A program made the position numbers and the translations under genes. Below the pieces are notes generated by a model. It was not told where the DNA came from, did no database searches, and saw nothing but the letters and a program-made list of their open reading frames with translations. From a phage, in sequence record PX132564.1: a DNA stretch of 47,573 nt. The stretch is one strand, 5' to 3'. Positions 6,084 to 46,760 of the stretch are shown here, in pieces. Position 1 is the first letter of the stretch. Each line of letters begins with the position of its first letter.

Positions 6084-7109
6084 ATGTCGATGTACACAAC
6101 CGCCCAGCTGCTGGCGGCAAATGAGCAGAAATTTAAGTTTGATCCGCTGTTTCTGCGTCTCTTTTTCCGTGAGAGCTATCCCTTCACCACGGAGAAAGTC
6201 TATCTCTCACAAATTCCGGGACTGGTAAACATGGCGCTGTACGTTTCGCCGATTGTTTCCGGTGAGGTTATCCGTTCCCGTGGCGGCTCCACCTCTGAAT
6301 TTACGCCGGGATATGTCAAGCCGAAGCATGAAGTGAATCCGCAGATGACCCTGCGTCGCCTGCCGGATGAAGATCCGCAGAATCTGGTGGACCCGGCTTA
6401 CCGCCGCCGTCGCATCATCATGCAGAACATGCGTGACGAAGAGCTGGCCATTGCTCAGGTCGAAGAGATGCAGGCAGTTTCTGCCGTGCTTAAGGGCAAA
6501 TACACCATGACCGGTGAAGCCTTCGATCCGGTTGAGGTGGATATGGGCCGCAGTGAGGAGAATAACATCACGCAGTCCGGCGGCACGGAGTGGAGCAAGC
6601 GTGACAAGTCCACGTATGACCCGACCGACGATATCGAAGCCTACGCGCTGAACGCCAGCGGTGTGGTGAATATCATCGTGTTCGATCCGAAAGGCTGGGC
6701 GCTGTTCCGTTCCTTCAAAGCCGTCAAGGAGAAGCTGGATACCCGTCGTGGTTCTAATTCCGAGCTGGAGACAGCGGTGAAAGACCTGGGTAAAGCGGTG
6801 TCCTATAAGGGGATGTATGGCGATGTGGCCATCGTCGTGTATTCCGGACAGTACGTGGAAAACGGCGTCAAAAAGAACTTCCTGCCGGACAACACGATGG
6901 TGCTGGGGAACACTCAGGCACGCGGTCTGCGCACCTATGGCTGCATTCAGGATGCGGACGCACAGCTCGAAGGCATTAACGCCTCTGCCCGTTACCCGAA
7001 AAACTGGGTGACCACCGGCGATCCGGCGCGTGAGTTCACCATGATTCAGTCAGCACCGCTGATGCTGCTGGCTGACCCTGATGAGTTCGTGTCCGTACAA
7101 CTGGCGTAA
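6084..7109 (+). CDS. E: major capsid protein E
   Basis: MSMYTTAQLLAANEQKFKFDPLFLRLFFRESYPFTTEKVYL..., lambda gpE-like, 341 aa; start at internal ATG of track ORF 6057-7109. Confidence 0.95.
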   Translation: MSMYTTAQLLAANEQKFKFDPLFLRLFFRESYPFTTEKVYLSQIPGLVNMALYVSPIVSGEVIRSRGGSTSEFTPGYVKPKHEVNPQMTLRRLPDEDPQNLVDPAYRRRRIIMQNMRDEELAIAQVEEMQAVSAVLKGKYTMTGEAFDPVEVDMGRSEENNITQSGGTEWSKRDKSTYDPTDDIEAYALNASGVVNIIVFDPKGWALFRSFKAVKEKLDTRRGSNSELETAVKDLGKAVSYKGMYGDVAIVVYSGQYVENGVKKNFLPDNTMVLGNTQARGLRTYGCIQDADAQLEGINASARYPKNWVTTGDPAREFTMIQSAPLMLLADPDEFVSVQLA

Positions 7110-7150
7110 TCATGGCCCTTCGGGGCCATTGTTTCTCTGTGGAGGAGTCC

Positions 7151-7549
7151 ATGACGAAAGATGAACTGATTGCCCGTCTCCGCTCGCTGGGTGAACAACT
7201 GAACCGTGATGTCAGCCTGACGGGGACGAAAGAAGAACTGGCGCTCCGTGTGGCAGAGCTGGAAGAGGAGCTTGATGACACGGATGAAACTGCCGGTCAG
7301 GACACCCCTCTCAGCCGGGAAAATGTGCTGACCGGACATGAAAATGAGGTGGGATCAGCGCAGCCGGATACCGTGATTCTGGATACGTCTGAACTGGTCA
7401 CGGTCGTGGCACTGGTGACGCTGCATACTGATGCACTTCACGCCACGCGGGATGAACCTGTGGCATTTGTGCTTCCGGGAACGGCGTTCCGTGTCTCTGC
7501 CGGTGTGGCAGCCGAAATGACAGAACGTGGCCTGGCCAGAATGCAATAA
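7151..7549 (+). CDS. FI: DNA packaging protein FI
   Basis: MTKDELIARLRSLGEQLNRDVSLTGTKEEL..., lambda FI-like; start at internal ATG of track ORF. Confidence 0.9.
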   Translation: MTKDELIARLRSLGEQLNRDVSLTGTKEELALRVAELEEELDDTDETAGQDTPLSRENVLTGHENEVGSAQPDTVILDTSELVTVVALVTLHTDALHATRDEPVAFVLPGTAFRVSAGVAAEMTERGLARMQ

Positions 7550-7925: not shown

Positions 7926-8504
7926 ATGGCCATAAAAGGTCTTGAGCAGGCCGTTGAAAACCTCAGCCGTATCAGCAGAACGGCGGTGCCCGGTGCCGCC
8001 GCAATGGCCATTAACCGCGTTGCTTCATCCGCGATATCGCAGTCGGCGTCACAGGTTGCCCGTGAGACAAAGGTACGCCGGAAACTGGTAAAGGAAAGGG
8101 CCAGGCTGAAAAGGGCCACGGTCAAAAATCCGCAGGCCAGAATCAAGGTTAACCGGGGGGATTTGCCCGTAATCAGGCTGGGTAACGCGCGGGTTGTCCT
8201 GTCCCGACGCAGGCGTCGTAAAAAGGGGCAGCGTTCATCCCTGAAAGGTGGCGACAGCGTGCTTGTGGTGGGAAACCGTCGTATTCCCGGCGCGTTTATT
8301 CAGCAACTGAAAAATGGCCGATGGCATGTCATGCAGCGTGTGGCCGGGAAAAACCGTTACCCCATTGATGTGGTGAAAATCCCGATGGCAGTGCCGCTGA
8401 CCACGGCGTTTAAACAGAATATTGAGCGGATACGGCGTGAACGTCTTCCGAAAGAGCTGGGCTATGCGCTGCAGCATCAACTGAGGATGGTAATAAAGCG
8501 ATGA
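7926..8504 (+). CDS. Z: tail completion protein Z
   Basis: 192-aa ORF in lambda Z position and size. Confidence 0.88.
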   Translation: MAIKGLEQAVENLSRISRTAVPGAAAMAINRVASSAISQSASQVARETKVRRKLVKERARLKRATVKNPQARIKVNRGDLPVIRLGNARVVLSRRRRRKKGQRSSLKGGDSVLVVGNRRIPGAFIQQLKNGRWHVMQRVAGKNRYPIDVVKIPMAVPLTTAFKQNIERIRRERLPKELGYALQHQLRMVIKR

Positions 8505-21658: not shown

Positions 21659-22516
21659 CTAATTGGGTGATAACAGATCCTGTGTATGGGAGTTTCCCTT
21701 TTTGCGTGCGTTGATGCTGGTAACGGCAAACGTCATGATGAACAAAACCGCGAATAAGACGACAATCGTCGGAGCTGGTGCGCTGTCGATAAAAAAGGAC
21801 AACCAGACACCAGTCATTGACACTATTACCGATATGCCAGTCGCCAGTAGGAGCGCAATATGAAAGCGTTGTGTCAGGAGTACCGCAATGGCGCCAGGCG
21901 CAATGAGCAGAGAAATGGAGAGAATGATACCTACCGCTTTCAGCGTCGCCACAATGGTCAGAGAGACCATGCACAGCAGCCCATAATGCAGCCATCTCGT
22001 ATGCAAACCGCTTACCTGCGCCTGTTGATAATCAAAGCTGAACAGCAAAAAATCCCGCCATTTTACGCTAATAACAAGTGTAACCAGCCCGGCAATAATC
22101 ATCGTCTGGATTATATCGCCGATGGTTATCCCGAGCATGTCGCCGAAAAGAATATGGTCAAGATGTACGTCTGGTTTGACTGCAATATACAAGATCAGAC
22201 CTGCGGCAAACATGCCAGAAAAAACAATCCCCATCACTGTATCTTGCTTGATTCGGCTGTTGTCTTTCAGGTATCCCGTCGCCACCGCACAGAATACTCC
22301 GGCGACGAATGCCCCTGTAGCCAAAGGTAACCCCAGAATCCAGGCAAGCACGATGCCAGGAAAAACCGCATGACTCATCGCGTCACCCATCAGTGCCCAA
22401 CCTTTCAGGACCAGAAAGACCGACAGCAGCGCACAGGGTATGGAAACTACCAGTGAAATCAGCAGTGCGTGACTCATAAAGGTGAACTGCAGTGGCTCCA
22501 GTAATAATGCCATCAT
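21659..22516 (-). CDS. sitD: Mn/Fe ABC transporter permease SitD
   Basis: 285-aa polytopic membrane protein, last gene of a four-gene binding protein/ATPase/permease/permease operon. Confidence 0.85.
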   Translation of the reverse strand: MMALLLEPLQFTFMSHALLISLVVSIPCALLSVFLVLKGWALMGDAMSHAVFPGIVLAWILGLPLATGAFVAGVFCAVATGYLKDNSRIKQDTVMGIVFSGMFAAGLILYIAVKPDVHLDHILFGDMLGITIGDIIQTMIIAGLVTLVISVKWRDFLLFSFDYQQAQVSGLHTRWLHYGLLCMVSLTIVATLKAVGIILSISLLIAPGAIAVLLTQRFHIALLLATGISVIVSMTGVWLSFFIDSAPAPTIVVLFAVLFIMTFAVTSINARKKGNSHTQDLLSPN

Positions 22517-23370
22517 GAGCGATCCTCCAGCGCCTTATGCGCACGCCGACGATTTGCCAAAAGCCCATGGGTGGGCGCAAAGACAAATGCTAAAAGAAAC
22601 AGCAGTGTCTGCGCCACCACGATGATTCCACCTGTCGCGCCGTCCAGAAAGTAACTGACCCACGCGCCGAGGAAACTGGTTACACTGCCAATAGTTACAG
22701 CAATCATGAGCAGGCGGGGAAAACGATCGGTTAACAACCATGCTGTTGCACCGGGAGTCACCACCAGACAGATCACCAGAAAGGCACCAACCGTTTGCAG
22801 CGCCGCAACGGTCGAAACCGACAGCAGGGTGAAGAAGAGGAGTTTTAATCTGCCCGGATGCAATCCAATAGCACGGGCGTGATTCTCGTCGAAAAAGGTC
22901 ACCATAAGATCTTTCCATTTGAAAAAAAGCACGATGATCGAGAGAATGCCAATGATAGTGAGTTGCAGGATATCCGCCGGATCGATTGCCAGAATATTGC
23001 CCAGGACGATGGTCTGAATGTTCACAGATGTCGGGTTCAATGACACCATAAACAGCCCCAGGCCAAAAAAGGACGAGAAGATCAGACCGATGATGGCATC
23101 TTCTTTTAAGCGGGTGCGTTGGTTAAGAAACAGCATGCTGCCCGCAGCCAGTCCGCCGGAAAAGAAGGCTCCCAGAGAAAACGGAAGCCCCAGCATATAT
23201 GCCCCCGCAACACCCGGGACAATAGAGTGCGACAACGCATCGCCAATCAGCGACCAGCCTTTTAGCATCAGATAGCATGACAGGAAAGCGCAGAGACCGC
23301 CGACCATCGCCGAGACCCACATCGCATTGAGCATATATTCATAGCTGAAGGGTTCCAGTAGCACGTTCAT
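22513..23370 (-). CDS. sitC: Mn/Fe ABC transporter permease SitC
   Basis: 285-aa polytopic membrane protein, paralogous to the adjacent permease. Confidence 0.85.
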
Positions 23371-24194
23371 CTTTCTTCCCTCTGCACCGCTGACGGTCGA
23401 TGAGCCACAAAAGGGCGTTCATCGTCAGTAATAATGCTTTCTTCCGAGCCGTTAAGTGTGACATGGCGCAGTACGCCGCTAAAAGCCAGCTCTAGGTTCT
23501 CGGCTGTAAAAGTGGTGTCTGTCGGCCCGCTTGCCAGGACGGTGCCTTTGACCATGACCGTATAATCGCAAAATGTCGTGACGGATCCGAGATTGTGTGT
23601 TGAGACAAGCATCGTTTTGCCTTCCGCGCGTAACTCCCTCAACAGGCTGATGATTTTGGCTTCGGTTTTCACATCAACGCCAGTAAAAGGTTCATCCAGC
23701 AGGATCACATCACCCTGCTGTGCAATCGCTCTCGCCAGAAAGACGCGTTTCTTTTGTCCACCGGAAAGCTCGCCGATTTGTCGATGGCGAAAATTCACCA
23801 TATCGACACGTTCCAGCGCATCGGTGACAATTTGACGATCCCTCTTTTTGGCGATACGCAACATACCCATATGCCCATAGCGGCCCATCATCACCACATC
23901 TTCCACCAGTACAGGAAATGACCAGTCAACATCTTCTGACTGAGGGACGTAGGCAACCAGGTTTTTCTGTAACGCCTGTCGCGTGGGAATACCCAGAACA
24001 GATATCTTTCCGCTGGTCAGACGCACAAATCCCATAATCGCTTTAAACAACGTCGATTTTCCGGAACCGTTTACCCCAACCAGAGCGGCAATAGATCCAC
24101 TTGGTACTGTGAAGGATGCATCGCGCAGTGCTGTGTGCCCGTTACGCCAGGTGACAGTAACATCATTAACGACAATGCCTGCAGATTGCATCAT
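23367..24194 (-). CDS. sitB: Mn/Fe ABC transporter ATP-binding protein SitB
   Basis: Walker [13 protein letters not shown] signature LSGGQKKR, Walker B ILLDEP. Confidence 0.9.
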
Positions 24195-25108
24195 TATTTC
24201 TCCCTTTTCCCAGCTTTAATTCCCTGTACCAGCGTACTGGTAGTAACCTTAAGAAGGTCGATATACGTCGGTACCGGGCCGTTTTCTGTGCTCAGGGAAT
24301 CGACATAGAGCACACCGCCGTAGTGTGCGCCGGTTTCACGCGCAACCTGACGCGCTGGTTTATCGGAAATCGTACTCTCGCTAAAGACTGCCGGGATATG
24401 ATTTTTCTTAACTATATCAACAACCTTACGTACCTGCTGCGGTGTTCCTTGTTGATCGGCATTAATCGGCCACAGATAAAGCTCTTTTAGCCCCAAATCG
24501 CGTGCGAGATAAGAAAAAGCCCCTTCACTGGTGACCATCCATCGCTGATTCTCAGGGAGTTCCGTAATCTGCTTACGCAGGGGGGCAAGGGTTTGGGTAA
24601 TCTTGGCTTTATAAGTATCGGCATTGCGTTGGTAGGTTTGTGCATTTGCCGGATCGTATTTTATCAACGCATCACGAATATTATCGACGTAAATCAGAGC
24701 ATTATCTGGCGACATCCATGCATGGGGGTTAGGTTTGCCCTCATAGGGTCCTTCGGTGATCCCTACAGGCGTCACACCCGAAGAGACAATTACTTCTGGA
24801 ACCCCATTGAGATGCTGGTAAAAGCGTTGGAACCACAATTCCAGATTCATACCATTGGCGAGAATCAGTTGTGCCCCCTGCGCACGTTTAATATCGCCAG
24901 GGGTAGGCTGATACTCATGAATTTCTGCACCAGGCTTGGTTATGGATGAGACTTCTGCAGCATCTCCCGCCACGTTTTTGGCCATATCCGCGATGATGGT
25001 AAATGTTGTAATGACCTTGAATTTTTCAGTTGCACTTGCCTGAAATGCGATCGAGCAGGTGAGTGCGAGCCCCCCCAAGAGCATGGTTACTTTTTTTATC
25101 GAGTGCAT
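24194..25108 (-). CDS. sitA: periplasmic Mn/Fe-binding protein SitA
   Basis: 304-aa protein with signal peptide [26 protein letters not shown] and metal-binding-protein-like body. Confidence 0.9.
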
Positions 25109-34050: not shown

Positions 34051-34590
34051 ATGCAACCACTTACATACCAACAGACTAGCGGATTTAGCCCGACTGCGGT
34101 GATAAATCGTTCTCAAACAAAACAGGTGCCAGGCCACGAAAAAATCCGTGATGCCGTCCGCGCCTGGTCGGCTGTAGATAATCAGGATGTCGTTGCCACA
34201 CTCATTGTGAATGAGTATCTGGAGCAGGGCGGCGGCACCATCGATTTCCCTGATGATGTCAGCCGTGCACGCCAGAAGCTGTTCCGCTTCCTCGATAACA
34301 AATTCGATTCTGAAAAATACCGAAATAACGTGCGTGAACTGACCCCGGCAATTCTGGCGGTACTACCGCTGGAATATCGCGGTTACCTGGTTGAGCAGGA
34401 TAGCTTCATGGCTAGGTTGGCTGAAATGGAAAAGGAACTCAGTGAGGCAAAACAGGCTGTCATTCTCAACGCACCACGCCACCAGAAACTGAAGGAAATT
34501 AGTGAAGGTATTGTGTCGATGTTTCGTGTGGACCCAGATCTGGCTGGTCCATTGATGGCGATGGTTACTACCATGCTGGGGGCGATATGA
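34051..34590 (+). CDS. CII-like / YdaT-family regulatory protein (putative)
   Basis: 179-aa ORF in the cII position with AAGGAG RBS; not lambda CII; family assignment from recollection only. Confidence 0.45.
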   Translation: MQPLTYQQTSGFSPTAVINRSQTKQVPGHEKIRDAVRAWSAVDNQDVVATLIVNEYLEQGGGTIDFPDDVSRARQKLFRFLDNKFDSEKYRNNVRELTPAILAVLPLEYRGYLVEQDSFMARLAEMEKELSEAKQAVILNAPRHQKLKEISEGIVSMFRVDPDLAGPLMAMVTTMLGAI

Positions 34591-34676: not shown

Positions 34677-35606
34677 ATGGCAAACACTGCTGAGATATTC
34701 AATTTTCCAGTGCCGGATGCGGCACAAAAGGAGCCGCGCGTGGCAGATCTCGATGATGGTTATACGCGCATTGCAAATGAGTTGCTGGAAGCTGTGATGC
34801 TGGCCGGATTAACACAGCACCAGCTTCTGGTCTTTCTGGCTGTCATGCGCAAAACATATGGCTTTAATAAAAAACTGGATTGGGTTAGCAACGAGCAACT
34901 TTCCGAATTAACCGGGATATTGCCGCACAAGTGTTCTGCTGCAAAAAGTGTTCTGGTAAAGCGTGGGATTTTTATTCAGAGCGGGCGGAATACCGGCATT
35001 AATAATGTGGTCAGTGAATGGTCAACATTACCCGAATCAGGTAAGAAAAATAAAGTTTACCTGAAAGAGGTAAATTTACCTGAATCAGGTAAAAAAAGTT
35101 TACCCAAATCAGGTAAAGGCGTTTACCCGAATCAGGTAAACACAAAAGACAAACTAACAAAAGACAATATAAAACCTTTTTCGTCCGAGAATTCTGGCGA
35201 ATCCTCTGACCAACCAGAAAACGATCTTCCTGTGGTGAAACCGGATGCTGCAATTCAGAGCGGCAGCAAGTGGGGGACAGCAGAAGACCTGACCGCCGCA
35301 GAGTGGATGTTTGACATGGTGAAGACCATCGCGCCATCAGCCAGAAAACCGAATTTTGCAGGGTGGGCTAACGATATCCGCCTGATGCGTGAACGTGACG
35401 GACGTAACCACCGCGACATGTGCGTGCTGTTCCGCTGGGCATGCCAGGACAACTTCTGGTCCGGTAACGTGCTAAGTCCGGCCAAACTCCGCGACAAGTG
35501 GACCCAACTCGAAATCAACCGTAACAAGCAACAGGCAGGCGTGACAGCTAGCAAACCAAAACTCGACCTGACAAACACAGACTGGATTTACGGGGTGGAT
35601 CTATGA
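34677..35606 (+). CDS. O: replication initiator O
   Basis: MANTAEIFNFPVPDAAQKEPRVADLDDGYTRIANELLEA... is lambda O N-terminus-like; GGGAGG RBS before the ATG at 34677; ori iterons inside. Confidence 0.85.
   Translation: MANTAEIFNFPVPDAAQKEPRVADLDDGYTRIANELLEAVMLAGLTQHQLLVFLAVMRKTYGFNKKLDWVSNEQLSELTGILPHKCSAAKSVLVKRGIFIQSGRNTGINNVVSEWSTLPESGKKNKVYLKEVNLPESGKKSLPKSGKGVYPNQVNTKDKLTKDNIKPFSSENSGESSDQPENDLPVVKPDAAIQSGSKWGTAEDLTAAEWMFDMVKTIAPSARKPNFAGWANDIRLMRERDGRNHRDMCVLFRWACQDNFWSGNVLSPAKLRDKWTQLEINRNKQQAGVTASKPKLDLTNTDWIYGVDL
35031..35140 (+). repeat. replication origin iterons inside O (four 18-19 bp repeats TTTACC(C/T)(G/A)AATCAGGTAAA) followed by an A/T-rich segment
   Basis: Copies at about 35031, 35076, 35098, 35121, each an internal inverted repeat TTACC...GGTAA; A-rich stretch 35141-35180. 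Confidence 0.7.
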
Positions 35607-36304
35607 AAAACATCGCCGCACAGATGATTAACTTTGACCGTGAGCAGATGCGTCGGATCGCCAACAACATGCCGGAACAGTACGACGAAAAGCCGCAGGT
35701 ACAGCAGGTAGCGCAGATAATCAACGGTGTATTCAGCCAGTTACTGGCAACTTTCCCGGCGAGCCTGGCTAATCGTGACCAGAACGAACTGAACGAAATC
35801 CGCCGCCAGTGGGTTCTGGCTTTCCGGGAAAACGGGATCACCACGATGGAGCAGGTGAGCGACGGAATGCGTGTTGCCCGTCGGCAGAATAGACCATTTC
35901 TGCCATCACCCGGGCAGTTTGTTGCATGGTGCCGGGAAGAAGCATCCGTTACCGCCGGGCTGCCAAACGTCAGCGAGCTGGTTGATATGGTTTACGAGTA
36001 TTGCCGGAAGCGTGGTCTGTATCCGGATGCAGAGTCTTATCCGTGGAAATCAAACGCGCACTACTGGCTGGTTACCAACCTGTATCAGAACATGCGGGCC
36101 AATGCGTTGACTGACGCGGAATTACGGCGCAAGGCTGCCGATGAACTGGCCTGTATGACCGCGCGAATTAACCGTGGTGAGGCTATACCTGAACCAGTAA
36201 AACAACTTCCTGTCATGGGCGGTAGGCCTCTAAATCGTGCACAGGCTCTGGCGAAGATCGCAGAAATCAAAGCTAAGTTCGGGCTGAAAGGAGCGATGAA
36301 ATAG
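35603..36304 (+). CDS. P: replication protein P (DnaB helicase loader)
   Basis: 233 aa MKNIAAQMINFDREQMRRIANNMPEQYDEKPQVQQVAQIINGVFSQLL..., lambda P. Confidence 0.95.
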   Translation: MKNIAAQMINFDREQMRRIANNMPEQYDEKPQVQQVAQIINGVFSQLLATFPASLANRDQNELNEIRRQWVLAFRENGITTMEQVSDGMRVARRQNRPFLPSPGQFVAWCREEASVTAGLPNVSELVDMVYEYCRKRGLYPDAESYPWKSNAHYWLVTNLYQNMRANALTDAELRRKAADELACMTARINRGEAIPEPVKQLPVMGGRPLNRAQALAKIAEIKAKFGLKGAMK

Positions 36305-36553
36305 AGCTAAAGTATTAGCTTAAAAATAAAGTATACCTAGCGAATATAATCTAGGACTAGTTGTAACGCCCGAAATGATTGATTGCGTGAGCAACAAAAT
36401 TTTTCTTCCATTGTTGTGAAATCATTTAGCCATAAAGTTTATGCAGAGATTTTATTTTATTTTTGAGTTGATTTTTTTGTAACGAGCTGTATATTTCGCG
36501 CCTCTTGTCATACCAGTTATTTTTTTCATTATATTCATAACGTTGATTGAACT

Positions 36554-39500
36554 ATGACCACTGTGAATAAAAAGTTAAAAAAAACTGCATCTGGCGCGAT
36601 TACATGGTCGGTAATTGTTACCCAGATATTATCTCCAGTTTCTCTTTCTTTGATCCCAGCAAACAGTTTTGCATCATCTGGTAATAAAGATGTTACGCAA
36701 ATTTATGCCAGCGATGAGCATGCAAATAAAGTGGCCTCATTTGCAGCAAGTGCAGGTCAGAGCCTGGCGAATAATAATGCAAGTAGTTTTGCTGTAAATA
36801 CTTTATCAACTCAGGCGACAAAAGAGGTCGTCGACTGGTTGCAACAATATGGCAATGCGCGCATCAAGCTTAATGTCGATGATTCTTTTTCCTTGAAGGA
36901 TTCATCATTCGACTTTTTATATCCATGGCTGGATACTCAGGATTATGTGTTATTCAGTCAGACATCACTACATCGTACTGATGACCGAAATCAGACCAAT
37001 ATTGGTTTGGGGATTCGTCATTTCACTCCTGATAACGCAATGTTGGGTGCGAATGTTTTCTATGATTACGATTTAAGTCGTAGTCACTCTCGTGCAGGTT
37101 TTGGGGTTGAGTACTGGAGGGATTATTTCAGGCTTGGTGTAAATACCTATTTTGGTCTATCTGACTGGAAGAACAGTCGTGATATTGATGATTATCTGGA
37201 AAGACCTGCAAATGGCTGGGATTTTTCTGCTGAAGGATGGCTACCTGCTTATCCGCAATTAGGGGCATCTATTCAGTTTGAAAAATATTATGGTAAAAAT
37301 GTCGGGTTATTTGGAAGCGATAACCTGCAGGAAAACCCTTACGCAGTTACTGGGGGAATTTCTTATACACCAGTTCCTCTGATTAAGTTTTCTGCACAGC
37401 ATAAGCAAGGACAGAGCAACACTCACGATACAACCTTTGGTGTTGAGTTTAATTATCGCCCGGGCGTTTCCTTGGCTGAACAGCTTAGCAGCGATAATGT
37501 TGCAGTTATGCGAGAAGTCCAGAACCGGCGTTATGATTTTGTTGAACGAAATAACAACATTGTTCTGGAGTACAAGAAGAAGCATGCACTGAAAATCAGT
37601 TTGCCAGAGTCTGTTCAGGGGGAGGGGGAATCAATCATCCCTGTAACACTGACAATCAACAATGCTAGTGGTGGTATCAAGTCTGTACAGTGGAATGATA
37701 GTGCATTCACTGCGGCTGGCGGCAAGATCAGTGGAAATGGCACATCATGGCAGATCACTTTACCGGCTTATAAAAGCGAAGGTGTAAATTCGTGGAATGT
37801 TGGAGCCACAGTACAGGATAACAGAGGCAACGTTTCCAACTATGCCGTGATGAATATTAGCGTTACTGATAGTGGTGTCTCGACGGCTGATTCGTCTTTT
37901 ACACTGGATGGAGATTCGTCGCCGACAATCTCTGCTGATAGCCAATCCACTTATCCGATAGTATTAAGCCTGAAAGATAGTAACGGTAAGGCATTAACCG
38001 GACTGGCTGATGACATTGAAATGTCAGTGGAATTTACAGCAGATAGCAATAGTGCTCGACAGCGTGAAACGGTAACTGCTCCGTCATTAGGCGCGGTAGA
38101 GGAAATCTCTGCTGGGGTATATCGCTCTAAAAGCGAAGGTGTAAATTCGTGGAATGTTGGAGCCACAGTACAGGATAACAGAGGCAACGTTTCCAACTAT
38201 GCCGTGATGAATATTAGCGTTACTGATAGTGGTGTCTCGACGGCTGATTCGTCTTTTACACTGGATGGAGATTCGTCGCCGACAATCTCTGCTGATAGCC
38301 AATCCACTTATCCGATAGTATTAAGCCTGAAAGATAGTAACGGTAAGGCATTAACCGGACTGGCTGATGACATTGAAATGTCAGTGGAATTTACAGCAGA
38401 TAGCAATAGTGCTCGACAGCGTGAAACGGTAACTGCTCCGTCATTAGGCGCGGTAGAGGAAATCTCTGCTGGGGTATATCGCTCTGTTCTGGCTGCTGGT
38501 TCGCAGGCTGGTACGGTACGTGTAACTGCAAAAGTTCAGGGAAAAACATTTACTCTCAGTATTAAGCAAACAGCAACAACAGAACCTGATTCTGAGGTCA
38601 GTGCTGTTTTAACCGCTGCACCAGCAGAACAGGTAGTTGGTTACAATATCAATCTACAACTGGCAGTGAAGGATTCACAAGGAAATGCAATCACTGGTGA
38701 TAACACTCTGAGCTTTTATGCTCTTAACCAGGCAGAAGGAGTCGAGTTTGGGACTGTAACGGAAAAAGACGGTGTCTATAGCGCGACAGTAACTTCAAAA
38801 CGAGCTGGTAAGATTACTATCGGTGTTAAATCTGATAGTCATGATTTCTCAGGTGTTAAGAAAGAAATCACCTTTATTGAGGACCGGCAGCAGGTTACAT
38901 TCTCTCAGTTTGAAGCCAGCCAAAATAATGCATTGGCTGATGGAAAACAGAGAAATATGGTAACTGTAAGCCTTGCGGACCGTTTCGGCAATGTTGTTCC
39001 TGGTTATGCTGTCACATTGTCTTTACCAGCAGGGATAACTCAAGTTGGTGGTGAACATGCTGTTTCAACTGACGAAAATGGTAATGCTATTTTTGCGTTA
39101 ATAAGCTCCACTCCGGGGTCTTACGTGATTACAGCTCATGCTGGTTCTCAGATGTCTACTGAGTTAACAGTGACCTTTGCATCAAATATGACCGGAGCTT
39201 CACTGTCACTGACGCCTGAAAGCAGTAGTTTAATTTCCAATATTCCTGCTAATGGTAAGGATGCAGCGGTATTAGATGTGCAGCTGACAAATACGAATGC
39301 GTCGGTCAATGGGCAAAAGATTCAGCTCATCACCTCATCTGAAGGATTATCTGTACCAACAAATATCGTGACTGATTCAACAGGGCATGTTTCTGTTCCG
39401 CTTACAACGGTGAAAGCTGGTGAGTACACGGTGACTGCACGGGTGACTGACGGTTCCCATAGCGTGGAATCTGGCAGCGTTAAGTTAACTTTTGTGCCCG

Positions 39501-40462
39501 ATGTTGCTTCTGCAGAACTGAATATGAGTGTATCAAAACAGGAGATTGTGGCCGATGGCAGTGAAAACGCAACAGTAAACATTCAGTTGGTTGATGCGAA
39601 TAACAATGCGTTTACAGGCGAGGTGGATTTAACGATTACACCATCGACGGGAGCATCATTGACCAGTAGTAATCTGCAACTGGATGCTCATGGACAGGCA
39701 ACAACGCAGTTCACTGCATCGAAATCAGGCCAGTACACAATTCAGGCCGAGTATGTTCTGGATGGGAAACGCATAACCGCAAGCCAGAATATTGATGCCG
39801 TGACGGATGTGAAGGGGGCTGTGTTGGAGATCACATCATCTGCATCTTCGGCTGTAGTGAGCGATACCAACAATCTGGTATTTACGTTACTGTTGAAAAG
39901 TAAGTCAGGCGAAGCATTAAGTGGTCGAGCATTGAATGTTAAGACATCTGGGCCGTCTAAATATGGTGCGTTGGTGGTTGATAAAACCACAGTAACGACT
40001 GATGAGAACGGTCAGGCTACGGTAAGCGTACATGGTCGAACGGTTGGTTCGTATAAATTAACGGCGACCTTAAACGAACTTGGCAGTGATGTTAGCGCGG
40101 TGAAATCATTCTCCCTGTACGCTGATGACGCAAATGGAGTATTGACTCTAACAAAAGATCCTGGTTATGAGACAAACGATGGATCTCCAGTAGGTATTTA
40201 TGCTCGATTTGTCGATCATTTTGGAAACCCATTATCTGGTACGGTTGAGTTTTCTGCTGGTAGTGAAGATAGTCCAGACTCTCAACGGGTCAAAATGGAG
40301 CCTGCTACAGTAACGTTACACTGGACAGGTAATGCAGCTTCGGAATTCAGCACCTATGAAAGTGGTTATCACTGGATTAAGGCCAAAATAACGAATAGCA
40401 AAAATACATATGAGAAAACAATAAGGACTTATGTTGTAAAACTACCTGAAAAGGATAGTTAA
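36554..40462 (+). CDS. invasin/intimin-family inverse autotransporter adhesin with multiple Big (Ig-like) repeats
   Basis: 1302 aa; signal peptide, then a beta-barrel region (…LFSQTSLHRTDDRNQTNIGLGIRHF…NPYAVTGGISYTPVPL…DRNNNIVLEYKKK) resembling Yersinia invasin/intimin, then serial Ig-like repeats; AT-rich upstream. Confidence 0.85.
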   Translation: MTTVNKKLKKTASGAITWSVIVTQILSPVSLSLIPANSFASSGNKDVTQIYASDEHANKVASFAASAGQSLANNNASSFAVNTLSTQATKEVVDWLQQYGNARIKLNVDDSFSLKDSSFDFLYPWLDTQDYVLFSQTSLHRTDDRNQTNIGLGIRHFTPDNAMLGANVFYDYDLSRSHSRAGFGVEYWRDYFRLGVNTYFGLSDWKNSRDIDDYLERPANGWDFSAEGWLPAYPQLGASIQFEKYYGKNVGLFGSDNLQENPYAVTGGISYTPVPLIKFSAQHKQGQSNTHDTTFGVEFNYRPGVSLAEQLSSDNVAVMREVQNRRYDFVERNNNIVLEYKKKHALKISLPESVQGEGESIIPVTLTINNASGGIKSVQWNDSAFTAAGGKISGNGTSWQITLPAYKSEGVNSWNVGATVQDNRGNVSNYAVMNISVTDSGVSTADSSFTLDGDSSPTISADSQSTYPIVLSLKDSNGKALTGLADDIEMSVEFTADSNSARQRETVTAPSLGAVEEISAGVYRSKSEGVNSWNVGATVQDNRGNVSNYAVMNISVTDSGVSTADSSFTLDGDSSPTISADSQSTYPIVLSLKDSNGKALTGLADDIEMSVEFTADSNSARQRETVTAPSLGAVEEISAGVYRSVLAAGSQAGTVRVTAKVQGKTFTLSIKQTATTEPDSEVSAVLTAAPAEQVVGYNINLQLAVKDSQGNAITGDNTLSFYALNQAEGVEFGTVTEKDGVYSATVTSKRAGKITIGVKSDSHDFSGVKKEITFIEDRQQVTFSQFEASQNNALADGKQRNMVTVSLADRFGNVVPGYAVTLSLPAGITQVGGEHAVSTDENGNAIFALISSTPGSYVITAHAGSQMSTELTVTFASNMTGASLSLTPESSSLISNIPANGKDAAVLDVQLTNTNASVNGQKIQLITSSEGLSVPTNIVTDSTGHVSVPLTTVKAGEYTVTARVTDGSHSVESGSVKLTFVPDVASAELNMSVSKQEIVADGSENATVNIQLVDANNNAFTGEVDLTITPSTGASLTSSNLQLDAHGQATTQFTASKSGQYTIQAEYVLDGKRITASQNIDAVTDVKGAVLEITSSASSAVVSDTNNLVFTLLLKSKSGEALSGRALNVKTSGPSKYGALVVDKTTVTTDENGQATVSVHGRTVGSYKLTATLNELGSDVSAVKSFSLYADDANGVLTLTKDPGYETNDGSPVGIYARFVDHFGNPLSGTVEFSAGSEDSPDSQRVKMEPATVTLHWTGNAASEFSTYESGYHWIKAKITNSKNTYEKTIRTYVVKLPEKDS
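37772..38485 (+). repeat. perfect tandem duplication, 2 x 357 bp (119 codons), inside the adhesin gene
   Basis: Protein segment KSEGVNSWNVGATVQDNRGNVSNYAVMNISVTDSG...EEISAGVYRS occurs twice back to back; antisense track ORFs 37760-37945 and 38087-38302 are identical over their shared 60 residues. Confidence 0.9.
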
Positions 40463-40473
40463 CAAAATTGAAT

Positions 40474-40500
40474 GGGGAGGGCTTAGCCCTCCCTCTTTTT
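40474..40500. terminator. bidirectional rho-independent terminator between convergent adhesin and esterase genes
   Basis: GGGGAGGGC-tta-GCCCTCCC(T)C followed by TTTTT on plus and an A/T-rich run on minus. Confidence 0.7.
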
Positions 40501-41542
40501 ACAGGTTAGCGTTTGGGTTTTGTTGTTGGGGAGCTGTTTTTATAGGCGCTCCCAGGTTTTTAGTAAACCACTCAACGACTCTGTTTATAATAATTGGCTG
40601 ATACCATGTCTTATCGCCATGCTCGGCCCCTTCTACCAGCACGTACTCAGCGTTATCACCGTTCTTCTTCAACATCCTGAATAGTTTGGCGCTTTGCTCA
40701 GGTGAAACCAGAGTGTCTTTGCTACCATGCATAATAAGAAATGGGGGTTTTACTCCTTTCATATGTCCGATTGGACTGGCGTTTAGCGCTTTTTCTTTTG
40801 ACGCTGTGATGGGGGCTCCCGCAAAATTTCTGAATGCAGGGCCATTGATCATTAAGGCTTCGGTTACGGCAGGAGAGCGATGAACCTCCTGCACTGATTC
40901 AGGGAACCCCTCGCCAATATTCAACAAGTCAGAAATCCCATAAAGTGTGGCAACTGCCTGAACATCTGAGGATTGCTGAAGAAAGTCACCTTTATCAAAG
41001 GTTTTGTCACCATTTGTAGTTCCCATCATCTGGGCAAGCCATCCACCGGCAGAGTCACCCAGAACTCCGATTCTTTGAGGATCAATCCCATAATTGCTGG
41101 CATGCTCTCTCAGGTAACGTATTGCAGCTTTTCCATCCTCAACTGGTGCTGGAAATGTATCAGGAATTGTTCTGTATTCTACAGCGGCCACAACAAAACC
41201 AGCTTCTGCCAGAGCCATTCTCATTTCAATAAATTTGTCATGTTCAGAAGACATGAATCCGCCGCCGGGATAATAAATAATGGCTGGTTTTAAATCATTT
41301 GTTCGCGGGACAAGAACTGACATGTGAAGCTGTCTGACAGAACGAGTTCCTTTTATCTGGGAATAAACAACATCACCAATGAGATCGACCTGGTTTCTGG
41401 TCGGTGAAACACTAATGATATCTGCACCCGGGGTGTAACCAGGAAGATTAGTCTGGACAGGTGTTGCACAACTCCCGACCGACATGGCCATTGACATACC
41501 ATACAATAGTGTTGCAGATGATAATATCTTGTTAATTTTCAT
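40499..41542 (-). CDS. alpha/beta-hydrolase esterase/lipase, probable lipoprotein
   Basis: 347 aa; lipoprotein-type signal ending in Cys; oxyanion-hole PGGGF, nucleophile elbow GDSAGG, C-terminal HG. Confidence 0.8.
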   Translation of the reverse strand: MKINKILSSATLLYGMSMAMSVGSCATPVQTNLPGYTPGADIISVSPTRNQVDLIGDVVYSQIKGTRSVRQLHMSVLVPRTNDLKPAIIYYPGGGFMSSEHDKFIEMRMALAEAGFVVAAVEYRTIPDTFPAPVEDGKAAIRYLREHASNYGIDPQRIGVLGDSAGGWLAQMMGTTNGDKTFDKGDFLQQSSDVQAVATLYGISDLLNIGEGFPESVQEVHRSPAVTEALMINGPAFRNFAGAPITASKEKALNASPIGHMKGVKPPFLIMHGSKDTLVSPEQSAKLFRMLKKNGDNAEYVLVEGAEHGDKTWYQPIIINRVVEWFTKNLGAPIKTAPQQQNPNANL

Positions 41543-41989
41543 GTTTTACATGCCTTGACTTATCGGATGAAATTCTCTTACTAAATTTAACGGCAGTTTA
41601 ATAGCCGTACAACTCGTGGTAGCCAGGGAAATATCCCAGTCGTGGTTAAGGTTGTACTTGACGGCTATTATTTCAACAATGCTTAAAGTGAGAGCTTAAG
41701 GTTATGCGTATGTTTTACAGTCCGAGTAGATTCTGACCAATAGCTTCTTTGTATAATTCTGTCAGAAATAAATCTTGGCTTGCATGAAGTTTGAGACCTT
41801 ATCTTGTTTGATTATGAATAATCAATTCGCCATAATTGTATCACCGGAGCCTGAACAACTCCGGTGACTTCTGCGCTAAACGGGGACGTTTATGCGCACA
41901 CACAATCCAAACTCTCTTCTCCCTTCACAGATGCAGAAATGCACCTGCGTTTTTTTGCATCTAGCGTCTGACCTCTGTGGAGGTGAAGC

Positions 41990-42445
41990 GTGAACCTACC
42001 ACAAGATGGCATCAAACTGCATCGCGGTAACTTCATCGCTATCGGCCAGCAGATCCAGCCTTATCTGGAGAACGGAAAATGCTTTCGCATGGTGCTTAAA
42101 CCGTGGCGTGAGAAACGCAGTCTTTCCCAGAATGCACTCAGCCACATGTGGTACAGCGAAATCAGTGAATACCTCATCAGCAGGGGGAAATCGTTCGCTA
42201 CCGCAGCATGGGTAAAAGATGCTCTCAAACACACATACCTCGGTTATGAAACCAAGGACCTGGTTGATGTCGTAACCGGCGAAATCACTACTATCCAGTC
42301 GTTACGCCATACCTCCGATCTCGATACCGGAGAGATGTATGTCTTCCTGTGTAAGGTTGAAGCCTGGGCGGTGAATATTGGCTGCCACCTGACTATTCCG
42401 CAGAGCTGCGAGTTCCAGCTGCTGCGCGACAAGCAGGAGGCGTAA
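41990..42445 (+). CDS. ninB: NinB-like recombination protein (putative)
   Basis: 151 aa, GTG start; contains KRSLSQN...W like the NinB RSLDQN motif; first gene after the nin-region insert. Confidence 0.55.
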
Positions 42446-42615
42446 TGGCTACACCGCTTATTCGTGTCATGAACGGACACATCTACAGAGTACCAAATCG
42501 TCGTAAGCGTAAGCCTGAGCTGAAACCATCCGAAATACCAACACTGCTCGGATATACCGCCAGCCTGGTTGATAAAAAATGGTTGCGACTGGCAGCAAGG
42601 AGGAATCATGGCTGA
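42445..42615 (+). CDS. NinE-like small basic protein (putative)
   Basis: 56-codon ORF coupled (TAATG) to ninB and overlapping the ybcO start; below track cut-off. Confidence 0.35.
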   Translation: MATPLIRVMNGHIYRVPNRRKRKPELKPSEIPTLLGYTASLVDKKWLRLAARRNHG

Positions 42616-45659: not shown

Positions 45660-45953
45660 TTATTGTGAGCAATACACACGCGCTTCCAGCGGAGTATAAA
45701 TGCCTAAAGTAATAAAACCGAGCAATCCATTTACGAATGTTTGCTGGGTTTCTGTTTTAACAACATTTTCTGCACCACCACAAATTTTTGCTGCATCGAC
45801 AGTTTTCTTCTGCCCAATTCCCGAAACGAAGAAATGATGGGTGATGGTTTCCTTTGGTGTTACTGCTGTAGGTTTGTTTCCAACAGTAAACGTCTGTTGA
45901 GCACATCCTGTAATAAGCATTGCCAGAGCGGCAGAAAACAACATTTTTTTCAT
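45660..45953 (-). CDS. bor: Bor lipoprotein (serum resistance)
   Basis: MKKMLFSAALAMLITGCAQQTFTVGNKPTAVTPKETITHHFFVSGIGQKKTVDAAKICGGAENVVKTETQQTF..., lambda Bor; start at internal ATG of track ORF. Confidence 0.92.
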   Translation of the reverse strand: MKKMLFSAALAMLITGCAQQTFTVGNKPTAVTPKETITHHFFVSGIGQKKTVDAAKICGGAENVVKTETQQTFVNGLLGFITLGIYTPLEARVYCSQ

Positions 45954-46433
45954 CTTATTATCCTGCATTGTTAAAAACGGCAGAATCCTATGTGACAACA
46001 ATTAAACGATAGTTAAATGGATTGATGAAAATTAAAACTACACAGGTGGGCTCAGACTATTGGAGGAAGTTGGGGACACTCAGAATCCTGTGGAATGAAA
46101 TAAACCGGTCTATCCGTCCATTACCCTTTTAGCTGCGCTGTATCGTCGCCGTATTCCCGCATTAACCATGACCGTAGCCCGACGGGGAATTCCTTCTGCG
46201 TGAGTGTGCGGGAATAATTAAAAACGATGCACACCGGGTTTTTACCGCGTTAATGATTCGCGGGTTTATCCCGGTGCGATGGTGGAAGAAACAGGAAGCT
46301 GTATTACAGAAAGTGCTACTACTGTATCCCGATGCGATGTATGTAATGTGAGTCAGATAATGGCACAGGATGTGGTGATGTGGCAGTCTGGAACACAGGA
46401 TATATTGTCAGAATAAGACCCGTAGGAATAAAA

Positions 46434-46760
46434 ATGAAAAGACGCCTTTTACTACTTTTTCTGTTATCTGTCCTGGCAGTGGGATGCTCGCAGCAAAAAG
46501 CTGATGAGCCCCGGCAATTAGTGACGGTGTATCCACGATATCCGGAATATGCTGCAGCAAATTATATCAAGGGGCTGGTTGAGGTTAAGTTCGATATTGG
46601 TGCTGATGGGACTGTGACACGGATCGTTTTTCTCCGCTCAGAGCCTCATAATTTGTTTCGTGATGAAGTGGTGAAGGCCATGGCGAAATGGCGATTTGAA
46701 AAGAATCGCCCCTGTCAGGGAGTGAAGAGACAATTTATCTTTACGCCGTCACGTCCTTGA
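46434..46760 (+). CDS. lipoprotein with TonB-C-terminal-like fold (putative envelope protein)
   Basis: MKRRLLLLFLLSVLAVGCSQ lipobox; YPRYPEYAAANYIKGLVEVKFDIGADGTV...AMAKWRF resembles TonB_C; AGGAAT RBS. Confidence 0.55.
   Translation: MKRRLLLLFLLSVLAVGCSQQKADEPRQLVTVYPRYPEYAAANYIKGLVEVKFDIGADGTVTRIVFLRSEPHNLFRDEVVKAMAKWRFEKNRPCQGVKRQFIFTPSRP

Follow-up and report, generated by a model that had tools for sequence, protein, structure and literature searches.

Sequence record PX132564.1 (47,573 bp; this whole stretch of DNA is called the window here) is a complete lambda-like phage genome in virion order, with the terminase genes at the left, integrase and recombination genes in the middle, and immunity, replication, Q and lysis genes at the right. 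Because its structural half is 97% identical to that of isolated infant-gut lambda-like coliphages (1H12 and the Lambda_ev series), the backbone is that of a real phage. Here we analyze the gap between the replication gene P and ybcN, which holds two convergent open reading frames (ORFs) with 36 bp between them: an inverse autotransporter (IAT) adhesin gene at 36554-40462 on the + strand and a lipoprotein esterase gene at 40499-41542 on the - strand. The original prediction, made from the letters of this DNA, had called the same frames of 1302 and 347 amino acids (aa) on these strands, and both its coordinates and its gene calls proved correct. GC content is 0.35-0.47 over 36250-41750, compared with 0.50-0.56 in the flanking phage genes. 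The features of the locus, in window coordinates, are as follows.

35603-36304, + strand: replication protein P gene (Pfam Phage_lambda_P, E 3.4e-61), the last conserved backbone gene before the variable slot
36295-36553, + strand: AT-rich leader of the adhesin cassette (GC 0.35)
36468-36495 and 36505-36532, + strand: two candidate sigma-70 promoters in the adhesin leader (promoter-like sites)
36554-40462, + strand: inverse autotransporter (type Ve) adhesin gene, 1302 aa (ORF call, Pfam)
37771-38485, + strand: exact tandem duplication in the passenger, 2 x 357 bp, 119 aa each (TRF: period 357, 2.0 copies, 100% match)
40474-40494, + strand: GC-rich hairpin, intrinsic terminator of the adhesin gene (from its fold; retained with the adhesin cassette)
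40495-40501, no strand assigned: CTTTTTA, 7 bp, present in both cassettes; it supplies the + strand terminator with its T tract, and the esterase stop codon (40499-40501) falls within it
40499-41542, - strand: lipoprotein alpha/beta-hydrolase gene, 347 aa, BD-FAE / hormone-sensitive-lipase-like (ORF call, Pfam)
41051-41053, 40715-40717 and 40619-40621, - strand: esterase catalytic triad, Ser164 (in GDSAGG), Asp276 and His308, respectively (codons checked by translation)
41468-41470, - strand: esterase lipobox Cys25 (codon checked by translation)
41543-41847, - strand: esterase upstream region, the expected promoter site (within the esterase cassette)
41990-42445, + strand: ybcN (NinB-like), which opens the retained DLP12/phage-82-type nin module (ybcN-ninE-ybcO-rusA-ylcG-Q)

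To define the boundaries of the inserted DNA, related loci whose backbones were 96-100% identical were compared with the window by pairwise BLAST. When only the esterase was present (loci L002, L004, L070 and L072), homology to the window stopped at 36294 and resumed at 40495. In the adhesin-only locus L003, homology ran to 40501 and resumed at 41848. The junction breaks precisely in the interval from the hairpin to the esterase stop codon, and the region therefore consists of two cassettes, an adhesin cassette of 4.2 kb (36295-40494) and an esterase cassette of about 1.35 kb (approximately 40502-41847), which have only CTTTTTA in common. The slot can also lose both genes. L081 (IMGVR_UViG_651053022_000004; 8382-8420) is 100% identical to the window on both sides of a 4,670-bp deletion (window 36491-41160), by which the adhesin ORF is lost together with two-thirds of the esterase gene, at its 3' end.

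The hairpin between the genes had been described as a shared bidirectional terminator. On the + strand it folds with -20.8 kcal/mol and is followed by a CUUUUU tail, whereas the - strand version (-16.7 kcal/mol) has a poor U tract, and it is convincing as a terminator for the adhesin strand only. The same hairpin is kept after the adhesin in L003, and in the esterase-only locus L004 another hairpin occupies the same spot, before the same T tract. Because it is kept in the one case and replaced in the other, the hairpin belongs to the adhesin cassette, and the idea of a shared element is not supported.

The two genes also assort independently. The gene order is P-adhesin-esterase-ybcN in L001, P-adhesin-ybcN without the esterase in L003, and P-ren-emrE-ybcK-esterase-ybcN without the adhesin in phage 4A7 and strain SCU-124. 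ISEc23 splits the adhesin/esterase junction in L005 and H21, and the junction is broken at the same point in H116 and H117. Among IMG/VR viral contigs, the adhesin accompanied the esterase in 26 of 45 esterase loci and was absent from 18; six adhesin loci lacked the esterase. The intact junction was found in 423 of 5,426 complete Escherichia coli genomes. Thus, co-occurrence in related prophages, which the original prediction had regarded as informative, is real in these 423 genomes and 26 loci, but each gene is also found alone.

It might be argued that the adhesin and the esterase are a functional pair, in which the substrate modified by the esterase is the adhesin, the ligand of the adhesin or a polysaccharide of the surface, enabling the adhesin to work, and both genes are kept together by selection around a shared bidirectional terminator. 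They are indeed adjacent and convergent at a distance of 36 bp, an export signal is present on each product, the genomes counted above have an intact junction, and most adhesin-positive loci also have the esterase. However, either gene is found alone in near-identical phages, the breakpoints lie between the hairpin and the esterase stop codon, the hairpin is part of one cassette and replaced by another in esterase-only phages, and the junction is interrupted in the four cases given above. In addition, chromosomal homologs of the two genes are never neighbors, and the relatives of the esterase are tied to phenolic-acid metabolism (see below). We therefore regard a functional pair as very unlikely. 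Because each gene occurs alone in near-identical phages, the adhesin and the esterase are not a functional or evolutionary unit; they are separate cargo genes that are neighbors by chance, and the adhesin/esterase pair proposed originally falls with its separate cassettes and unrelated chromosomal homes. A single operon of both genes was also considered and was rejected as they are convergent. The best explanation is probably that two separate morons lie side by side in the P-ybcN slot of a lambda/DLP12-type temperate coliphage and assort independently.

Both genes are common. Of the 5,426 complete E. coli genomes, 560 (about 10%) had the 5' part of the adhesin gene and 681 (about 12.5%) had the esterase; sequence type 131 (ST131) isolates are among the carriers of both, and the E. 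coli that carry the esterase include at least the O types O25 and O83. Between alleles, dN/dS was 0.08-0.14 for the adhesin barrel, 0.22-0.28 for its passenger and 0.15-0.45 for the esterase. Since these values are low and full-length ORFs of both genes predominate in hundreds of genomes, both are under purifying selection and are kept by selection. These data also bear on the view that the genes are hitch-hiking DNA without a host function in a tolerant hot spot. Much variation is indeed seen in the slot, which is empty or holds about 2 kb, ren-emrE-ybcK or the adhesin in different phages; insertion sequences have entered it, and the L081 deletion of both genes shows that their loss is tolerated by the phage. 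Against this, hundreds of genomes retain full-length ORFs, every comparison gave a dN/dS well under 1 and the catalytic residues of the esterase are invariant, which makes passive hitch-hiking highly improbable.

The adhesin was recognized by its domain content. Its beta-barrel (aa 57-334, window 36722-37555) matches Pfam IAT_beta (PF11924, E 4.9e-101) and is N-terminal to the passenger. A sequence search of the PDB matched this barrel to those of Yersinia invasin (4E1T, E 8.5e-74) and intimin (4E1S, E 5.9e-63), and no FdeC structure was matched to the adhesin in this search. In the passenger, Pfam detected at least five Big_1/Invasin_D3 stretches, and there are about ten immunoglobulin (Ig)-like domains: when aa 340-1302 were scanned in segments of about 100 aa, each segment gave an Ig-like match, the last one weak (E 0.057). 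Neither LysM nor an Intimin_C / C-type lectin tip was found by Pfam in the whole protein or its fragments. The N-terminus, MTTVNKKLKKTASGAITWSVIVTQILSPVSLSLIPANSFA followed by SS, is a candidate signal peptide: as read from the translation, its N-region is basic, its core is hydrophobic and an A-x-A-like site follows. Upstream of the gene, GC content is 35%, compared with 54-56% in O/P. The invasin/intimin-type inverse autotransporter of 1302 aa with an AT-rich upstream region that had been predicted here is thus borne out.

The adhesin was also compared with known IAT groups. A survey of 126 E. coli genomes published in 2019 described seven IAT groups at fixed chromosomal sites (PMC6714894). 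This inventory does not include the adhesin, though its strain MNCRE44 carries the gene. NCBIfam equivalog cut-offs were not reached for the N-terminus of IatC (393 of 2400 bits), intimin (329 of 1400), SinH (325 of 999) or YchO (270 of 508). Because all of these scores are far under the cut-offs, the adhesin is, judged by sequence, an ortholog of no named E. coli/Salmonella IAT group (intimin, SinH/IatB, IatC or YchO/IatA). PHROGs holds it only within families of unknown function, and in a protein search of 50,697 INPHARED records, none that is a phage genome encoded any inverse autotransporter. Our literature searches turned up no published study of the adhesin/esterase locus.

The stalk of the adhesin contains the exact 357-bp duplication listed above. 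The unit is in-frame and spans parts of two Ig-like domains, beginning in the last third of one and ending two-thirds through the next. With its boundaries inside Ig-like domains, every added copy therefore makes a chimeric Ig domain. Alleles of 1184, 1302, 1421 and 1540 aa, corresponding to one to four units, were present in L001-L061, and stalk length therefore varies in nature, a change that would proceed through gain or loss of the 357-bp unit.

The esterase matches Pfam BD-FAE (PF20434, E 5.7e-45, 153.9 bits against a threshold of 26.8) and Abhydrolase_3 (PF07859, E 1.1e-22, 81.3 bits against a threshold of 25). Besides the triad, it has the oxyanion motif PGGGF (G93-G95), and S164, D276, H308 and G93-G95 are invariant across 28 homologs and aligned with 6NKF; by sequence, its catalytic residues are intact. 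The segment MKINKILSSATLLYGMSMAMSVGS-C25 agrees by eye with a PROSITE-style lipobox rule, and Ala occupies position +2 after Cys25, so that there is no inner-membrane retention signal. These data agree with the lipoprotein esterase with a GDSAGG motif, transcribed towards the adhesin, that had been expected on the - strand. Export signals are predicted on both proteins, as had been anticipated for envelope or surface products. An AlphaFold model of the esterase (pTM 0.80) had its best PDB matches in 6NKF, BD-FAE (6TKX/6XYC) and GH43-CE (6MLY). By sequence and fold together, its nearest relatives are the rumen esterase 6NKF (E 1.6e-37), a Bacteroides GH43-CE bifunctional enzyme, BD-FAE and an acetyl-ester/xyloside hydrolase. 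BD-FAE (6TKX/6XYC), the founding member of the Pfam family of this name, is a feruloyl/acetyl-xylan esterase (PMC8165983). We also observed a C-terminal tail of the esterase family (...P-[DN]-A-N-L; window 40502-40519), which is conserved after a variable linker and is common to the secreted Dickeya forms and the lipoprotein forms.

Analysis of chromosomal relatives placed the two genes in unrelated settings. A homolog of the adhesin that is 66% identical and 1186 aa long is chromosomal in Citrobacter (L082-L084); its surroundings there contained none of the phage genes of this window and no esterase gene. Escherichia albertii has an 80%-identical adhesin fragment. The 66%-identical adhesin was also seen in the metagenome viral contigs L033 and L034 (9977-13537), just beyond two different prophage integrases, one of these prophages being P2/186-like. 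This form appears to be a chromosomal gene beside an integration hot spot, and a Citrobacter-type chromosomal adhesin may be the source of the phage copy.

Orthologs of the esterase with 63-80% identity are chromosomal in Dickeya, Pectobacterium, Pantoea, Kluyvera, Klebsiella and some rhizobia, mostly with ordinary signal peptides; those of Dickeya and Pectobacterium are 63-72% identical to the phage protein. A feruloyl esterase pair has been published for Dickeya, the secreted FaeD together with FaeT (PMC9007343; bioRxiv 10.1101/568105). Dickeya aquatica has two paralogs of the phage esterase, one with a signal peptide and one without, and its ortholog carries the database name 'Ferulate esterase'. 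This paralog pair fits FaeD and FaeT, the latter of which is reportedly cytoplasmic, the link being by name and paralog number. The two closest homologs that share the lipobox (79% and 75% identity) are located directly downstream of a gene for phenolic-acid decarboxylase, an enzyme that consumes ferulic and p-coumaric acid, in four independent contigs. Upstream of the phage esterase, a search for remains of a phenolic-acid decarboxylase gene gave none; nucleotide homology begins there 10 nt before the start codon. A different context was observed in L096, where an 80%-identical homolog of 370 aa (6117-7229) lies near genes for a SPATE-type serine-protease autotransporter and a PerC-like regulator, a second, island-like mobile setting for the esterase.

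Prophage-encoded enzymes that modify the cell surface are well known, and it might be proposed that the esterase edits the envelope, removing O-acetyl groups from O-antigen, capsule or peptidoglycan and thereby blocking superinfection or altering serotype, in a mirror image of phage O-acetyltransferases. The lipobox would place it in the envelope, where such polymers pass, and carbohydrate acetyl esterases are among its structural neighbors. However, the proteins most closely related to it are secreted or lipoprotein enzymes from plant-associated Enterobacterales, which are tied to phenolic-acid decarboxylase or bear the name ferulate esterase, no glycan-synthesis genes are nearby, and its occurrence in two or more O types speaks against one O-antigen as the substrate. 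Envelope editing is therefore, in our view, unlikely. Since homology and gene neighborhood point to phenolic-acid metabolism, a hydroxycinnamoyl/acetyl esterase is in our view the better reading, ahead of an enzyme acting on the adhesin or the cell surface. Judging from its relatives, the phage esterase most likely acts in the periplasm or on the outer membrane, where it would cleave small compounds from plants that are hydroxycinnamoyl (feruloyl) esters, acetyl esters or both; an action on adhesin-related substrates or surface polysaccharide, as suggested originally, is disfavored by the same homology and neighborhood, which indicate a feruloyl/acetyl carbohydrate-type enzyme.

If the genes are two independent morons, as we propose, each would be transcribed in the lysogen from its own promoter, the esterase against the early-right operon. 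The AT-rich leader of the adhesin may be subject to H-NS-type silencing. In the lysogen, the adhesin terminator would stop unmodified RNA polymerase arriving from upstream, so that the esterase would be protected from antisense transcription. In the lytic cycle, antiterminated early-right (pR-type) transcription would have to cross both cassettes to reach Q. The adhesin would be exported by Sec, its N-terminal 12-stranded barrel would insert in the outer membrane and the stalk of about ten Ig-like domains would be threaded to the cell surface. Among E. coli IATs, IatB, IatC and IatD promote biofilm formation (PMC6714894), and those of similar architecture promote biofilm formation or adhesion (PMC6714894, PMC5595812). 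The most likely role of the adhesin in lysogens, by analogy with FdeC, YeeJ, IatC and IatD, is to mediate adhesion or the formation of biofilms. Lysogenic conversion, which had been suggested for the two genes as one module, is thus plausible gene by gene, for moron-type cargo in the early-right region, and not for a joint module.

Several observations weigh against this interpretation. The two genes are together more often than apart in counts made without correction for phylogeny; we attribute this excess to shared ancestry and clonal sampling, ST131 being among the carriers. The region has no more promoter-like sites than chance would give (10 against an expected 11.6), and there was no - strand promoter-like site in 41543-41847. 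The 'ferulate esterase' label is a database name not traceable to an assayed FaeD sequence, and esterases of the hormone-sensitive-lipase type are promiscuous. With regard to the adhesin tip, the single-sequence AlphaFold model of the last 303 aa (pLDDT 47) is too poor for a fold search, and a ligand is not readable from it; this low-confidence model is all-beta, without helices. As a homology query, the last 203 aa returned two fragments only.

Of the two genes, the adhesin is the more interesting, as it is common, phage-borne, length-variable and unnamed. Provided that it is expressed, roughly a tenth of sequenced E. coli strains, including many ST131 isolates, carry a phage-delivered surface adhesin that is absent from standard IAT inventories. 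This protein would be a candidate factor in colonization and a surface antigen of variable form, and it might be of use as a vaccine or typing target. With the esterase, a phage would be supplying E. coli with an enzyme for plant phenolic esters, which is rarely seen. The locus itself is a clean natural example of separate morons stacking in one hot spot, and it also illustrates how the terminator of one moron may insulate its neighbor. A broader scenario joins both products: the adhesin would be an unrecognized eighth E. coli IAT group, spread by a viable lambda-like phage, enriched in pandemic lineages of extraintestinal pathogenic E. coli such as ST131 and acting as a colonization factor whose reach is tuned by 119-aa units, and the esterase would free hydroxycinnamates or acetate from dietary-fiber fragments, so that the lysogen sticks to and feeds on plant particles or gut mucus. 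We offer this scenario as a speculation that is quite unlikely to be correct as a whole.

With respect to the slot, the nin region had been thought to be replaced. ybcN scores just below the Pfam NinB cut-off (23.7 bits, cut-off 23.8); it matches PHROG 72 NinB/Orf with E 2e-51, and the RefSeq annotation of an identical locus agrees. Replacement of the whole nin region was rejected, as ybcN-ninE-ybcO-rusA-ylcG-Q is still downstream. Since the equivalents of ninB-I (ybcN, ninE, ybcO, rusA and ylcG) are retained there, the ren/ninA slot alone has been replaced, and the earlier description is correct for that slot and not for the genes after it. An Rfam scan of 36000-42500 gave no match. On the left side of the locus, the gene at the cII position (34051-34590) encodes a protein with a YdaT-toxin domain, called 'CII-like' in the 4A7 record. 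On the right side, a 33-codon ORF (ylcH/orf33-like; 41892-41993) overlaps the ybcN start. In the phage 82 record X92588, the annotation of the matching stretch includes -35/-10 signals and a site where a regulator may bind, and this annotation suggests a putative promoter for the nin/rusA module directly downstream of the esterase cassette.

Other cargo was noticed elsewhere in the genome. In the b region (21659-25108, - strand), four genes lie between the tail-fiber genes and int. Their products are a ZnuA-type binding protein of 304 aa, an ABC ATPase of 275 aa and a pair of ABC-3 permeases of 285 aa. In sizes and order they agree with the iron/manganese transporter genes sitABCD, and they are called sitABCD-like here. 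After the lysis genes, there is a homolog of the Bor/Iss serum-resistance lipoprotein (45660-46001, - strand) and a gene for a 126-aa protein with a TonB C-terminal domain (46380-46760, + strand), which PHROGs labels 'Rz-like spanin'. As the sitABCD-like genes, bor/iss and the gene with the TonB C-terminal domain are also aboard, this is a multi-moron converting phage.

The locus may finally be compared with known systems. Like the morons of other lambdoid phages (bor/iss and lom of lambda, emrE, ybcK, ybcL and ybcM of DLP12, nanS-p of Stx phages), the adhesin and the esterase are self-contained genes of atypical GC content that are present or absent between near-identical phages, and their slot is the DLP12-type ren-emrE-ybcK site. 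The adhesin moron also has its own terminator. What differs is the cargo, which here includes a 3.9-kb inverse autotransporter, and the esterase is an alpha/beta-hydrolase, unlike the NanS-p esterases, which are SGNH-type.

The esterase shares with BD-FAE the Pfam family (154 bits), the Ser-Asp-His triad, the GGG oxyanion motif and the fold, but the two are only about 25% identical. The phage enzyme has a lipobox, whereas the Dickeya proteins have a signal of the signal-peptidase-I type, and it is phage-borne rather than part of a polysaccharide-utilization locus or a plant cell-wall degradation regulon. The adhesin is built like FdeC/EaeH, YeeJ, IatC and IatD, with an IAT_beta barrel at the N-terminus and Big_1/Invasin_D3 Ig-like domains in series after it, and its AT-rich upstream region resembles those of other horizontally acquired genes. 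FdeC is not known to have a LysM domain or a C-type lectin cap, and with both absent from the adhesin as well, FdeC is the nearest to it in layout. The adhesin differs from the named IAT groups, which occupy fixed chromosomal sites, in being phage-borne, and it is set apart from the named E. coli IATs by a stalk that varies by a 119-aa unit.

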